Below, one piece after another: positions 30,001 to 36,000 of a DNA stretch of 64,000 bases (within the stretch, counting starts at the first letter, position 1; every line of letters starts with the position of its first letter). Source of the stretch: Spirochaetia bacterium (GTDB lineage Bacteria; Spirochaetota; Spirochaetia; SP-2023); contig OZ253665.1 of assembly GCA_965263295.1 (NCBI GenBank), forward strand, positions 1,952,001 through 2,016,000, given 5' to 3'. A program made the position numbers.

Positions 30001-33000
30001 CCAATATTATGCGTGTCAATTATTCAGATGTTTTTACACAGCACAAATATCAAGATGTTAAGATTGTTTACATCGACTCAGGGTGGGAAAAATATGTACC
30101 GGCTAAGTTTTCATCTATGGAAACGAAAGATACTCAAATCCAGATTCTCTTTAATTTAGTCAAGAAAATAATAGAGGAACACAAAAGACCTATAATTATT
30201 TGTTTAGATGAGATATTGAACGGTTTCGGAGAACAAGAGAAAGAATATTTTCTAAATAATATTACAAAGTTTATTAAAAATACTGAAGTCTCCGTTATTA
30301 TTTCTGATCATTCAGTGGCAGGGATACGCACGATAAAATTATTAGATTTGATAGAAACTAGGTAAGAATGCATAAAAATTTATTTTTGGGAGATAAGGCT
30401 TTTTTGCTCCGATATAATACCAAGTTAAATGATGTCGAGTCAGAGAAATTATACCTGACTGAAATCGAATTAATTATGAACATCCTTATTTAGATATCTC
30501 GTCCCTGATAGCATTCAAAAAAGAACCTATGATAGCTCCGCTAAAAAACAAGTGATCATATACAACAAATAATTCTTTTCTTGTATACACAAAGGTCAGT
30601 GGTGGCCCCACAGACGCTTCCATAAGTGGCAAGAATCCACTGTCGACTCCAATACTATGCCAGTCTGTTATGGCTAAAGTAGGGAAATACTTTTCTCCCT
30701 TTTCCTGTAGCTTTTCATGATCTTTTATGTATAGCCACTGTTCTTCATGTGTCTTACAATATAAAATACATTTTTTAATATAATCATTGATCTCGTCGAT
30801 AGTTAACCTGTTGACAAACGGCACCATCGACAAATGACCTTCCCTGGTCTGGATGGAAAAACAGAAATGATGGTTGTCGTTAACAAACATCACATCCTGA
30901 CCGCCATGTCTGCCGATAATGCCGTTCAGGCCCTTGAATTCTTCTCTTGAAAGAACGTTGGAAATTGCTTTTAGGTTATGAGCAAGAAAATGCTTCTTTC
31001 TCTCAAGATTTATGTTAACTGAATGCTTCACACTTATGGGTTTGCTCTTTCGTCTTCTCCATATGTTATTTCTAATATTTGAAAAAGACATTTCAAAAAA
31101 TGGGTTGTTTTTATCTCTTTTCCCCAGCAGACCTCTGCCTACAATGTCCATCTCTCTTATTGTTATCATTTTGCACCTCCATGAAAGAACCGTGTCAGAT
31201 GTGTAATTAGGAACGCCGATCGCATTCTTATAAAAGTAGTATAATAAAAAAGCGATGTGAAAACTATATGAATGGATTTCCCGTCGCCAACTGCGCACCT
31301 CTAAAAATCTGGAGGTGACCTTGAAGCGCTGTGTGCCATGTGGGTTCACTCGCGTTATACAACTCGGTGGGAATGAAGTCCGGTTCTATGAGGACGACTT
31401 CAATTCCTGGGAAGCAATAGATCATCTCTCTGCGCAGGGCATCGGCCAACGCTTCGACAGCATGTTTTGTCGACGGATACCAGCCCATCCCAGGTGGCGA
31501 TATATATACTGGCTGGATGAATTCTTCTGCTTGAACAGAGTATCGATTATGTTTTTAATCATGTTGGAGCCGATGGGGCAATTTTAGGTACGGGCAATTC
31601 TGAGCATTTGAAAAGTTTCGTTGACAATGCTGCTTCGATAGGGGTTTTTAGTGACAAAAATATTGATGCGACATAATAGGTTTGAAGGTCGCTCTTTGGA
31701 TGATTCCTTAAAATTTTTAAAAAATGCTTAGCTCTGGGGTAAAGCCTGGATATGACAAGCGGCGAAAGCGAGTAGCCCCCCGATTAGCCCTTGGGGGTTA
31801 CTCGCTTTTTTCATGGTTACTTGGCCAGGAACTGTGAAAGGGGGGGCTAGTCAACTTGAAATACTATCTATAGTATATATTTGTAATTTTATAGGATATA
31901 TAACCTATATATAGTGTATGCAATCGGGAGTGGAGCCATACCTATGAAGCAAGTTGAAGTGTTAAATCCGAAATCGACGCGTGGTTGGGTTGATAGCCGT
32001 GAGACCTTTGAAGAATATCTATGGCAACAAGATTGGCGGGTACGGGAAAATGCCAATCAGAGTTATTCACTGGGTGGATTAATGCAGGGTCTGTCGGGGA
32101 AACTGACAGCCAATTACTGGCTGGAAGAGGTTTACCCGCAGTCAATAAGCGAGTTACACCGCAACGCCGATATTCATATTCACGATCTGGGCATGTTTTG
32201 TGGTTATTGTGCCGGGTGGTCGTTGCGTCAATTGTTGCACGAAGGCTTCAATGGGGTTGCCGGTTCAGTGGAAGCTGCTCCGGCACGCCACCTGCGCTCG
32301 GCCATTGGTCAAATAGCCAATTTTCTGGGTACACTGCAAAATGAATGGGCCGGCGCTCAAGCCTTATCTTCAGTGGACAGCTATCTAGCTCCCTACGTGC
32401 GAGTCGATCAGCTCAGTTACAAAGAAGTCAAGCAAAATATGCAAGAACTTATTTACAATCTGAATGTGATGTCGCGCTGGGGATCGCAGGCACCGTTTAC
32501 CAACTTCACCTTTGACTGGAGTTGTTCGCCCGACTTGAAGGCCCAGCGGGTTGTGCTGGGCGGCGAAGAGCAGGATTTTTGTTACGGTGACCTGCAAACA
32601 GAAATGAACATGATCAACAAGGCTTTCATTGAAGTCATGAATCGAGGGGATGCCAAAGGGCGTATTTTCACTTTTCCAATCCCGACCTATAACATAACGG
32701 AAGATTTTGACTGGGACGGGGAAAATGCGCAGTTATTGTTTGAAGTGACAGCCAAGTATGGCCTACCATACTTTCAGAATTTCCTGAACTCTGATCTCTC
32801 CCCCTCTGATGTGCGGTCAATGTGTTGTCGTTTACAACTGGATTTACGCGAGTTGCGCAAACGAGGCGGCGGGCTTTTTGGTTCGTCAGAGCAGACAGGT
32901 TCAATTGGCGTGGTGACAATTAACTGCGCACGCCTGGGGCATCTTTTCAGTAACCGACAAGAAGCTTTGCTGTTCAAGCATCTGGATTATCTGCTGGCGC

Positions 33001-36000
33001 AAGCTAAAGACAGCCTTGAAATCAAGCGCAAGGTCATTAACCACTACCTCAAGCGCGGTCTATTTCCTTATACACGACGCTACTTGCACAATTTAGATAG
33101 ACACTTTGCCACTATCGGGGTCAATGGTATCAACGAGATGCTGCGTAATTTCACCAATGACAAAGAGGACATTACGAGCGCTTGGGGTAAGAATTTTGCC
33201 GAGCAATTTCTGGAATACATACGGAATCGGATGCAAGACTTCCAGGAAGAAACTGGCGGGCTTTACAATCTGGAGGCCACGCCAGCCGAAGGAACAACTT
33301 ACCGCTTTGCCCGCAAGGATCAGGAGTTGTATCCCGGTATCCTTCAGGCTGGTGTTCCAGAAGCGCCATATTATACCAATTCCTCCCAATTACCGGTGGG
33401 ATATGGGGGCAGCCCGCTAGGGACGCTGGATCATCAGGAATCTTTACAACGCAAATATACGGGTGGCACCGTTTTACACTTATATATGGCCGAGCCAATT
33501 AATTCCTGGCATCAGTGTCAAAAACTGGTTCGTCGAATTTTGGAAAACTATCGCATCCCATACCTGACAATTTCACCCACTTTCTCAATTTGTCCGAAGC
33601 ATGGATATATTGGTGGAAAGCACGAATTTTGTCCCAAATGTGATGCGGAACTACTAATTGAATACTCGCAACGAAGGAGTTAAATATGAGTAAGAGTATT
33701 GAGACGGCAGATAAGTTACCCTTAGAATGGCAGGAACGTCGTTGCCGTTGTGAGATCTGGACACGTGTTATGGGCTACCACCGCCCGTATAAGTCGTTTA
33801 ACGCCGGCAAGCAGGCCGAGTTTCGCGAACGGAAATACTGGGGCAAGGATTCTTTTTAAAGGATTTTTGTTAGCTGTAGAACATCCCACCCTAAGCGTAA
33901 AGTCAAGGATGGGTCTGAAATCATCAGGGGAAAATCTGCGATAAGAAGTACCAAAATCTGCGTCAGTTCTAAATCGCGGCCCGGTTGTTGGCCCGATCAC
34001 GCAACAAAGGGCTGGCTAAGGAATGGTTTCAGGGTGCTTTGATCTTTATTTTAGGCCGTTTGCGGAAGTACAGACCGCGCTCTAGCTCATCGTGCACCTG
34101 GAGGTAGAAGTCTTTGGCTGCCGCGGCAGATTTGAGTTCACTGTGCGGGCTTTGAAATACAAAATGCACGGCGCGGTGCTGGATAAAAAGGATGAATTCG
34201 GTATATAAATATTTTTTAGACATAAAATACAGCAAATAGCCATAGTTGTCGTTGTGCCCAAAGCTATGTACCTCCGGTGCTCGCACCTCGCGTATTTGCA
34301 CCGAATTTTGCCAGCTGGCCCGCAAGTTCGCCAGGTATTCGCGGGGTTGTACCTGATACGCTTCGTCATAGACGACGAACTGGATGCTTGGGCTGGGCTT
34401 CCTTCCGCTCCGTTGTGACCTGTAGGCCCGCATAGCGATATTTTGTGGCATCTGTTGCAGGTCCTGCAGGGCATCGGCGCCAAACTGCGCCGTATTTGGC
34501 ACAGACATTGTTGTGTTCGTTGTTGTGCCCGTTCCGGGACTTTGACAATCGTGAGCCTGCCAGTTGCGCAGCTCATCCCAGCGTTTTGAGGCACGGAAGA
34601 ACAGAAACTCTGTCTTGTTGTTCTCCTTGCTGTTCTCGCGCGCCTGGCTATCAGGTCCTGGCACATTACGCGGAGCTTGGGCCGTGGCGTGCTTGCCTGT
34701 CTTGAAGTCCACAACTGGGAATTGCAGCAAACGCGACTCGGAATTGGCGTGTACGATAAGACGGGAGGGTGCCGCATTGCCGCCAGCAGCCTGGCTCTGG
34801 CAGCCGAGAAGAGGAAGCGCCAATAGTTGGCTAATCAGGTATAGCGAGAACTTCATATCTTGGGTATCCTAGTGAAATCGTTATTTTTTTTGACAGGCCC
34901 CCCAATACTGCAAGGTCATAGATTGACTGTCAATTATGATCTAATTATAATATTGCGCCGCTAAGATTTGCCTCCATGCCAAATGGAGGGAGCTCTGGTT
35001 TTTGATGGTGGTGGAAATTGCGGTTCGTGTGTGCGGCTTTCCGCGACGACATAACCAATAAAATGTTCAATTTATGGAGTAGCTCATGTACGCATTAGTC
35101 GAAATTAAAGGTAAGCAATATAAAGCGGTCAAGGGTGAAACCCTGAAGGTCGACCGTTTTAATGAAGGGGCCGGCACTAGCTTGGACTGCGATAAAGTCA
35201 TGCTGTTATCCGATGGCGATAAAAGTGTTGTCGGTAAACCTTACGTGGCCGGTGCCAGTGTGAAATTAACTCTCGGTGAGGCCGTCAAGGGTAAGAAGCT
35301 CCGCGTATTCAAGTACAAACGTCGCAAAAAGTACCGCTTGACTCGTGGCCACCGTCAACAGTATAGCCTACTGAAAGTTGAAGATATTCAGGGTAGCCTT
35401 TAAGCCCCGCCGCAAAATTGCGCTGAGCAAGTACCGAGGTCTTGAGTTTGCAGGCTGTATTGCAATGGCGCCGCGCTGTACTGGTGTATGTCAGAGTGTC
35501 GGGCCACGCTGCGGCCGGCCAAGTTGAGCTTTGTATTGCCGCAAGTTGTTTGTTGCGCAGCTGTGCTTCGGCCATACAGGAGCTGAGGCTACCGGCTGCT
35601 TGCTGGCAATTAAGCTTGCCGCAAGAAGGTGAGTTTGTTTGGCGACTGATAGACTGGCCTGCTGAATGTTTGGGAGTCGTACAGGGGATTTCGTCAGTTC
35701 TAGCCACTGGTTTGCGCCGGCTGGCCGCAGACTTTCCGGCTTTAGAGCTCAGAGAGTTGGCGGCAAATTGATTTTATGAATAAATAGCTGTCGGGAGGCA
35801 GTAAAAGGAAGGAAGTCATGGCACATAAAAAAGGGGGCGGTAGCTCAAAGAATGGGCGCGATTCTAAATCGAAGCGTCTGGGTGTAAAGCGCTTCGGCGG
35901 TCAATTAGTCAAGGCCGGTGAGATTATCGTGCGTCAGCGCGGCACTAAGTTCCATCCCGGCAAGAATGTGGGCGTTGGTCGCGACCACTCTTTGTTCGCT

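Follow-up and report, generated by a model that had tools for sequence, protein, structure and literature searches.

The class III ribonucleotide reductase (RNR) NrdD of this Spirochaetia bacterium is encoded by two genes, one for a 579-aa chain and one for a 57-aa peptide that carries the glycyl-radical loop, and the sequence evidence makes it very probable that the two products form a functional two-chain enzyme. This two-gene class III RNR is a widespread and apparently undescribed design; our literature search for a split class III RNR found no description, although supplements of the RNR phylogeny papers, RNRdb notes or theses could mention it. The working two-chain NrdD that had been proposed in the genome-wide survey's note is well supported by the conserved position of the cut, by its occurrence in all three frame offsets and in unlinked gene pairs, and by signs of purifying selection. 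The NrdR-like boxes, the re-fusion of the two genes in some lineages and the split copy of Cupriavidus necator, where the enzyme is reported to be necessary for growth without oxygen, add to this support.

Both genes are located in the window, i.e. the whole stretch of 64,000 nucleotides analyzed here (Table 1). Re-reading of the sequence upheld the coordinates, the gap, the frame change and the ribosome-binding site given by the survey: the large gene ends with TAA at 33681-33683, and after 2 nt the small gene begins with ATG at 33686 in a different frame, with AAGGAG six bases upstream. The junction is repeated without indel in contigs of runs X2, X3 and X4 from two studies (runs X1 and X2 are possibly the source sample), and all six large-gene differences listed for a second strain are synonymous. 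The split nrdD is the only nrdD in this genome, which contains no spare copy of the peptide.

Table 1. Features of the split nrdD locus (positions within the window)
Feature	Position	Strand	Basis
NrdR-box-like site 1, 3 mismatches to consensus	31861..31876	+	
NrdR-box-like site 2, 2 mismatches to consensus, 25-bp spacer from site 1	31902..31917	+	
Large subunit gene (class III RNR NrdD, 579 aa from ATG)	31944..33683	+	ORF reading, profile searches
Finger-loop motif SMCCR, residues 292-296, double-Cys type	32817..32831	+	
Zinc ribbon, four ligands C550, H553, C563, C566	33591..33641	+	Aligns to T. maritima zinc site
AAGGAG ribosome-binding site of small gene, within final large-gene codons	33674..33679	+	Sequence reading
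Small subunit gene, 57 aa: beta-strand, glycyl-radical loop RVMGY, C-terminal tail	33686..33859	+	
Gly30 codon, predicted radical site	33773..33775	+	RVxGY motif of class III RNRs

The large chain matches PRK08270 with 976 bits (cut-off 548) and TIGR02487 with 465 (cut-off 326), and the two products tile the latter NCBIfam model end to end, the large chain covering positions 2-549 and the peptide 550-579. As the survey had reported, Pfam NRDD (PF13597) matches both pieces (E 7.6e-170 and 7.5e-08, respectively), and the finger loop is of the double-Cys class (motif classes according to PMC9669993). The HxHD triphosphate motif is HIHD (residues 78-81), and C89 aligns with the substrate-side Cys125 of T. 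maritima. The large protein does not, however, stop inside the zinc ribbon, as had been claimed: all four ligands (C550-x2-H553 and C563-x2-C566) lie on the 579-aa chain, and the cut falls just after the fourth. What separates this chain from a one-chain NrdD is the missing glycyl loop, cut off by the stop, the 2-nt gap and the frame change. It also lacks an ATP-cone, which its relatives have, and is found on a long branch (0.39-0.51 in the quick and FastTree trees).

The peptide is matched by PF13597 only, with no match to PF01228, and a PDB sequence search with it returned no match at E 1. We infer from the RVxGY motif that Gly30 is the radical site; it is Gly in all 36 aligned peptides. The claim of a second Cys pair on the peptide has to be dropped: the zinc ligands are all on the large chain, and among the 36 peptides C20 is Cys in only one, while the C22 position is Thr in five, so these residues do not form a ligand pair. 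A comparison of six chromosomal peptide pairs gave 40.5 synonymous versus 5.5 nonsynonymous differences.

The two NrdR-box-like sites upstream of the large gene were scored against a sequence that we take to be the NrdR-box consensus. They form one of only two tandem pairs of such boxes in the genome (chance expectation 0.0045 pairs), the other preceding the class I nrdA, and an nrdR gene is present. Spacers of 24-27 bp are known to bind NrdR (PMC12051234). The peptide gene has no NrdR-like box of its own in this genome, and a sigma-70 scan of the locus revealed no excess of promoter-like sites (4 versus 3.4 in shuffles). The nrdG-like gene is unlinked, about 185 kb from the locus, and divergent; it encodes a 268-aa CxxxCxxC protein, whose best family is NrdG2 (87 bits versus a cut-off of 131) and whose best matches are activases of the same clade. 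The genome contains no PF01228 glycyl radical enzyme as an alternative substrate of this putative activase.

The survey's report that the split recurs in other bacteria was borne out by a fresh search, in which the same cut was found in 24 of 47 complete related loci (a count that leaves out L038, cut by a contig end). The frame offsets of the split loci are 0, +1 and +2, and the gap ranges from -56 to +173 nt. The pair is separated by an additional gene in G857, by 9 kb in G724 and by about 600 kb in G015, a one-contig genome, and each peptide in the split loci has its own start. Open-frame lengths were not used alone for counts, because they can span an in-frame stop (e.g. L005, split yet 724 aa, and G029). 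Among the approximately 150 matches listed from a profile search, 13 had frames longer than 700 aa; this share is a biased estimate, as 46 further matches lay outside the listing and split forms had served to build the profile. Among the genomes searched, the split appears to be the norm in Burkholderiales and Spirochaetota, in three clades. In the order of Iodobacter (G341), NrdD is present in 114 of 401 genomes; by hand count, the large match terminates between profile positions 528 and 540 in 93 of these and is interrupted by a single stop in another 6, and 19 of 20 fetched loci, chosen mostly as worst cases, are split. The cut of the present genome matches that of an 11-row clade composed entirely of split forms (100% support, FastTree). 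Fused copies with split-type sequence (G844, and L014, which is nested among split Treponema) suggest that the two forms interconvert; the quick and FastTree trees, calculated without L035 because of its long insert, would imply five changes between split and fused, at least four of them forced by starred branches.

The clade of the present gene also includes the copy from the 453-kb megaplasmid pHG1 of C. necator H16, split into genes for 676 aa (76.2 kDa) and 66 aa, followed by nrdG. The C. necator enzyme has been reported as needed for denitrification and anaerobic growth. Siedow et al. in 1999 are said to have described this NrdD as a one-chain protein with G650 as the radical site; position 650 is occupied by the zinc-knuckle Gly (CPTHG), and RVMGY is encoded by the 66-aa gene. 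A literature search for G650 returned nothing relevant.

Comparison with known systems reveals both common and distinctive features. The barrel, HxHD, double-Cys finger loop, zinc ribbon and RVxGY are shared with one-chain NrdD/NrdG (T. maritima 4coi/4u3e, P. copri 8p23, phage T4 1h78), whereas here the glycyl loop and tail constitute a separate gene product, the ATP-cone is absent and the activase gene is unlinked. The spare parts of pyruvate formate-lyase (PFL), YfiD/GrcA of E. coli and Y06I of phage T4, are likewise small free radical-Gly proteins with phage-borne copies, but the family differs: the peptide lacks PF01228, which has no match in the genome. Moreover, YfiD rescues an oxygen-cleaved full-length enzyme, i.e. 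a complete partner with its own glycyl loop, whereas here the partner (the only nrdD) never has the loop, and the peptide is therefore a required subunit, unlike YfiD. The split class II RNR NrdJa/NrdJb also consists of a barrel and a separate C-terminal part (PMC9669993), but NrdJb bears the zinc finger and the re-reduction Cys, while in the present case the radical site is detached and the zinc site remains on the barrel chain. RNR genes in pieces have also been found in phages, namely nrdA-a/b of Aeh1, where the split enzyme is functional (PMC3653736), and nrdD of phiAS4, which is in three pieces. These are single events (caused by a homing endonuclease in Aeh1), whereas the cut described here is conserved across phyla and has no mobile element at the junction.

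The modelled complex of the large chain and the peptide scored 0.71, compared with 0.01 for the best of three controls; among the reference sets, 116 of 157 solved complexes and 2 of 215 mismatched pairs attain the score mark used. The runs share at least 93% of contacts, with a partner pLDDT of at least 75. The halves of a split gene can pass via likeness to solved one-chain NrdDs (4coi, 8p23), so the model shows likeness, not binding. The finger-loop Cys residues are absent from its confident contacts, an observation that, together with the unlinked low-scoring nrdG-like gene and the lack of promoter excess, speaks against a functional enzyme.

In the proposed mechanism, both genes would be transcribed from the NrdR-controlled upstream region, with translation of the small gene coupled to that of the large one. 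The peptide strand (residues 20-25) would dock on the large chain at the zinc ribbon, and the loop and tail of the peptide would stand in for the C-terminus that is covalently attached in one-chain NrdD. The radical-SAM protein encoded by the nrdG-like gene would place the radical on Gly30, from where it would move to a finger-loop Cys, and NTPs would be reduced as in double-Cys NrdDs, probably with a thioredoxin-type protein as the reductant, judging from the motif class. Since oxygen cuts at the radical Gly, damage would be confined to the 57-residue chain.

A nearly even chance may be given to neutral fission at a flexible hinge, which would result in a working two-chain enzyme with the peptide as a permanent 1:1 subunit, without exchange and with the split not kept for oxygen repair. 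The peptide gene of this genome, coupled across a 2-nt gap and devoid of its own box or a spare copy, fits a permanent subunit, as do the large modelled interface (~164 contacts), the added charged helices on both sides in the Spirochaetia forms, whose sequences would resemble a coiled-coil clasp, the re-fusions, the mobility of the glycyl domain already in one-chain NrdD (PMC11226230), and the presence of the split also in strict anaerobes. It is less easily reconciled with the Treponema clade, where the peptide gene is preceded in 9 of 15 split loci by a TTGACA-17-TATATT promoter that overlaps an NrdR box (probably one event, because all are in one clade), with the extra peptide copies (two in tandem in G210, three each per one large gene in G118 and G270), or with viruses that maintain the lone peptide under purifying selection. 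The promoter, the extra copies and the lone phage copies with their invariant Gly lend some indirect support to the exchange role suggested by the survey, in which the peptide would be an exchangeable radical cartridge, with fresh copies supplied in trans by cells or temperate phages and the barrel reused, a plausible possibility that we put forward tentatively. In the present genome, the two genes are tightly coupled and no spare copy of the peptide exists.

The peptide was found without the large gene in all 40 viral records searched. These are IMG/VR records, and the phage evidence rests on them, because INPHARED phages gave no match to the peptide. The viral copies are under purifying selection, with a phage dN/dS of 0.10 that is biased down by the greedy picking of its 17 disjoint pairs for high pS below 0.5. 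In the context WTRVM-x-YHRP, viral matches have Gly in at least 112 cases and another residue in none. An alternative that concerns just the phage copies is that the lone peptide acts on the host enzyme or activase as a decoy or modulator and not as a helper: in 61 of 80 viral loci, and in 12 of 20 peptide clusters, a lysis gene is found at a distance of no more than 2 kb, and such a late location is unusual for a gene that assists replication; only 4 of the 80 have an NrdR-like box upstream. We regard this as unlikely, given that the radical Gly is kept, although a simple decoy could do without it, and that T4 Y06I provides a precedent for a helper (PMC8683613).

There is only a slim chance that this nrdD is a decaying pseudogene or an assembly error. 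A repeated search gave the same counts as the survey, i.e. an NRDD match in none of 3 congeners and none of 2 others of the order, and the genome possesses a class I RNR, so that the enzyme is dispensable in the lineage. The absence from congeners and the class I RNR, together with the long branch, the missing ATP-cone and the divergent unlinked activase, would agree with decay, but the ribosome-binding site, catalytic motifs and NrdR-like boxes are intact, just synonymous changes are listed in the second strain, the cut is that of the well-supported all-split clade, and the junction from three runs contradicts an assembly error. The same absence, class I RNR, branch length and lack of an ATP-cone also weigh against a functional two-chain enzyme.

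A single polypeptide made by programmed frameshifting or stop-codon read-through can be rejected with near certainty: although the gap is only 2 nt here and the peptide is in frame behind the stop in many relatives (a set selected for that), the same cut occurs in all three frames, with gaps up to 173 nt, separate peptide starts, an intervening gene and separations of 9 kb and once 600 kb.

According to a 2026 review, the existence of spare-part proteins for glycyl radical enzymes beyond PFL has yet to be established (PMC13450708). The detached radical loop makes the spare-part question directly testable, with an activase substrate of 57 residues, and an exchangeable cartridge, if true, would constitute the first spare-part system among glycyl radical enzymes outside the formate lyases, one built into the architecture of the enzyme. 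This reading would also mean that the C. necator radical site of the 1999 study was assigned to the wrong chain. The genomes with the split form include facultative denitrifiers that meet oxygen. Any cloning, knockout or annotation limited to the large gene leaves out the radical site, and many short "anaerobic ribonucleoside-triphosphate reductase" entries, including those in gut prophages, would be real subunits, not fragments.

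The class III (anaerobic) ribonucleotide reductase (RNR) of the window is divided between a large NrdD chain and a short peptide in another frame, which starts six bases behind its own AAGGAG. The genome-wide survey's note had described this split. It is seen in the sequence, and contigs of sequencing runs X2, X3 (a separate study) and X4 span the junction without an indel; the six listed differences between X4 and the window are all synonymous. The Pfam NRDD match to both pieces was reproduced, and TIGR02487 is tiled by them (positions 2-549 by the large ORF, 550-579 by the peptide). 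That note also had the large chain ending inside the zinc ribbon and a second Cys pair on the peptide, which does not hold: all four zinc ligands (C550, H553, C563, C566) lie on the large chain, and C20 of the peptide is Cys in 1 of 36 aligned peptides. The peptide comprises the strand after the zinc site, the RVMGY loop (Gly30) and a tail. Since the glycyl radical domain of P. copri NrdD runs from a zinc site into the Gly loop and tail (PMC11226230, in excerpt), the cut falls within this domain, 3' of the zinc site.

Features at and upstream of the split nrdD locus
Feature	Coordinates	Strand	Remarks
Low-GC segment	27000-31500		GC 0.30-0.42 vs 0.49
Two ABC-exporter-like genes, divergent	27462-28931, 28947-30365		weak matches only
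287-aa ORF	30486-31349	minus	no family match
Short-chain dehydrogenase fragment	31264-31500	minus	weak adh_short match; 153 bp 97% identical to a second genome site
Hairpin	31785-31800		adjoins the repeat
Dispersed REP-like repeat (31-38 bp), upstream of NrdR-like boxes	31808-31845		roughly twelve further near-identical copies in genome
Tandem NrdR-like boxes	31861/31902		
Large NrdD ORF, 579 aa	31944-33683		NCBIfam PRK08270, 976 bits (cut-off 548)
Peptide ORF, 57 aa	33686-33859		2-nt gap to large ORF

Judged from sequence, the pair would work like one-chain NrdD, every motif of which is present, but differs in not being one chain. YfiD/GrcA is alike in concept, but the peptide is not a member of that family; PF01228 has no match in the genome. 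The survey's view that a naturally split class III RNR is undescribed agrees with the literature searched (most subscription papers and all supplements lay outside its scope), in which no two-gene class III enzyme turned up: in excerpt, PMC9669993 treats a split RNR of class II only and PMC3653736 a phage nrdD whose fragmentation has no known cause, and excerpts of PMC4390871, PMC3019208 and PMC4493059 were also covered.

The genome (one contig, 92.6% complete) possesses class I nrdA, nrdR and a single nrdD, the split one. As the survey had noted, NRDD has no match in 3/3 congeners and 2/2 other members of the order. A candidate activase, a 268-aa CxxxCxxC protein, is encoded ~185 kb from nrdD; its best family is NrdG2 (87 bits, below the cut-off of 131), and among 106 candidate activases three of its four best matches come from the large subunit's clade. 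The window's NrdD has no ATP-cone; Iodobacter has one. A genome scan with what we take to be the NrdR consensus found 16 sites at up to three mismatches, with only two tandem pairs (0.0045 expected by chance), the tabulated one and one before nrdA. With spacers of 25 and 26 bp, both pairs fall within the 24-27 bp range of boxes bound by NrdR (PMC12051234, in excerpt).

A complex model of large chain and peptide scored 0.71 (best of three controls, 0.01), passing a mark that 116 of 157 solved complexes attain, as do 2 of 215 mismatched pairs; this pass can be explained by likeness to solved one-chain NrdDs. Contacts agree by at least 93% between runs, partner pLDDT is at least 75, and peptide residues 19-25 are predicted to lie against zinc-ribbon residues 547-550 and 559-567. 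A working two-chain NrdD, as the survey proposed, is the most likely reading, and we hold it with considerable confidence: the peptide would dock non-covalently and complete the glycyl radical domain, the NrdG-like protein would activate it, and the radical would pass to a finger-loop Cys.

In glycyl radical enzymes, oxygen cuts the chain at the radical Gly (PMC8683613, PMC13450708, both in excerpt), so damage would fall on the peptide. Neutral fission, with the peptide as a permanent 1:1 subunit, has close to an even chance of being correct, and is favoured in this genome by the coupling of the peptide gene to the large gene and the lack of a spare copy. That the peptide is an exchangeable cartridge is a slightly more tentative proposal. 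Independent peptide supply is hinted at by promoters, extra copies and lone viral copies. In the Treponema clade, TTGACA-17-TATATT overlaps an NrdR box 5' of the peptide gene at 9 of 15 split loci. Two genomes (G118, G270) possess three peptide genes per large gene, some in phage-like surroundings, and a third (G210) has a tandem pair (L052:4177-4584), behind one large gene, the second copy with RVAGY instead of RVVGY. A relative is encoded in 250 IMG/VR stretches, and is alone in its flanks in all 80 kept; no large gene occurs in the 40 of these records searched whole (19 at least 90% complete). The pooled viral dN/dS is 0.10 (17 pairs, whose choice biases it downward), and the context WTRVM-x-YHRP has Gly in at least 112 matches and another residue in no viral match. 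A lysis gene lies within 2 kb in 61/80 loci and 12/20 clusters (one cluster accounts for 47 of the 80 loci). Cluster members bear names from Parasutterella, Turicimonas and Oxalobacter; among INPHARED phages the peptide had no match. One viral record (L128:1930-3198) has a reverse transcriptase gene (phrog_1423), possibly of a diversity-generating retroelement, upstream of the lone peptide gene. In Allochromatium vinosum plasmid pALVIN01 (L172:3986-4195) a lone peptide gene annotated nrdD directly follows a CHAP-domain gene, and the 8 kb shown contain no large gene.

The recurrence of the split in other Spirochaetia and in Proteobacteria, claimed earlier, is borne out. A GTDB search with the large protein gave 48 loci, 47 complete (24 split, 23 fused); the split ones are cut 3' of the zinc ribbon, in all three frame offsets, with gaps of -56 to +173 nt, although the fourth ligand is not clear in one (L021). 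Across the phylum a peptide profile, itself biased, matches 155/301 genomes, most matches listed lying in short frames; in 40 regions fetched from these, the large gene lies just upstream in 29 and not in 11 (one at a contig end). NrdD is present in 51/351 genomes of the phylum of Iodobacter (G341), 12 of them split in pattern by hand count, and in 114/401 of its order, where a hand count gives 93 with the split pattern and a further 6 with a single internal stop; 19 of 20 fetched from that order, mostly picked as worst cases, are split. Frameshifting is excluded as a general mechanism because in one genome (G015) the two genes lie ~600 kb apart on one contig, nrdG adjoining the peptide gene. 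In L056:1856-3927 (genome G011) the large subunit itself is in two frames, with a break near residue 240, real or an assembly error.

Trees built on the barrel alone by quick methods resolve the split forms into three clades plus a singleton and give five changes, of which starred branches force at least four; a fused NrdD of ~1100 aa from a Woesearchaeota MAG (L035), with a long barrel insert, possibly an intein, was excluded. The window's clade (11 rows, all split, starred support of 100) includes Kistimonas, Iodobacter, Cupriavidus, Ralstonia, Bacteroidia and a Nomurabacteria MAG, apart from other spirochaetes, and we infer that this nrdD was acquired horizontally. Junctions differ by clade: a short helix and a peptide start R-x-x-C-E here, charged helices on both sides and a glutaredoxin-like tail in the Spirochaetia clade, and His as the fourth zinc ligand in the third. 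One fused locus nested among split Treponema (L014) and a fused form with the split-type motif (G844) suggest re-fusion. In the Treponema clade (L024-L036, L050, L015-L018) a CPxCP glutaredoxin-like domain is fused C-terminally to the glycyl peptide, an arrangement that would give a single exchangeable chain both the radical and a possible reductant.

NZ_CP066020.1, a 453-kb C. necator plasmid taken from its size and species to be of pHG1 type, encodes in order a 676-aa chain (76.2 kDa), a 66-aa peptide with RVMGY, and nrdG. Siedow in 1999 reportedly described an NrdD of 76.2 kDa, with a G650A mutant taken to mark the radical site; position 650 of the large chain is occupied by the Gly in the zinc knuckle CPTHG. 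If that account is right, a split enzyme has been shown to work in vivo before, unrecognised.
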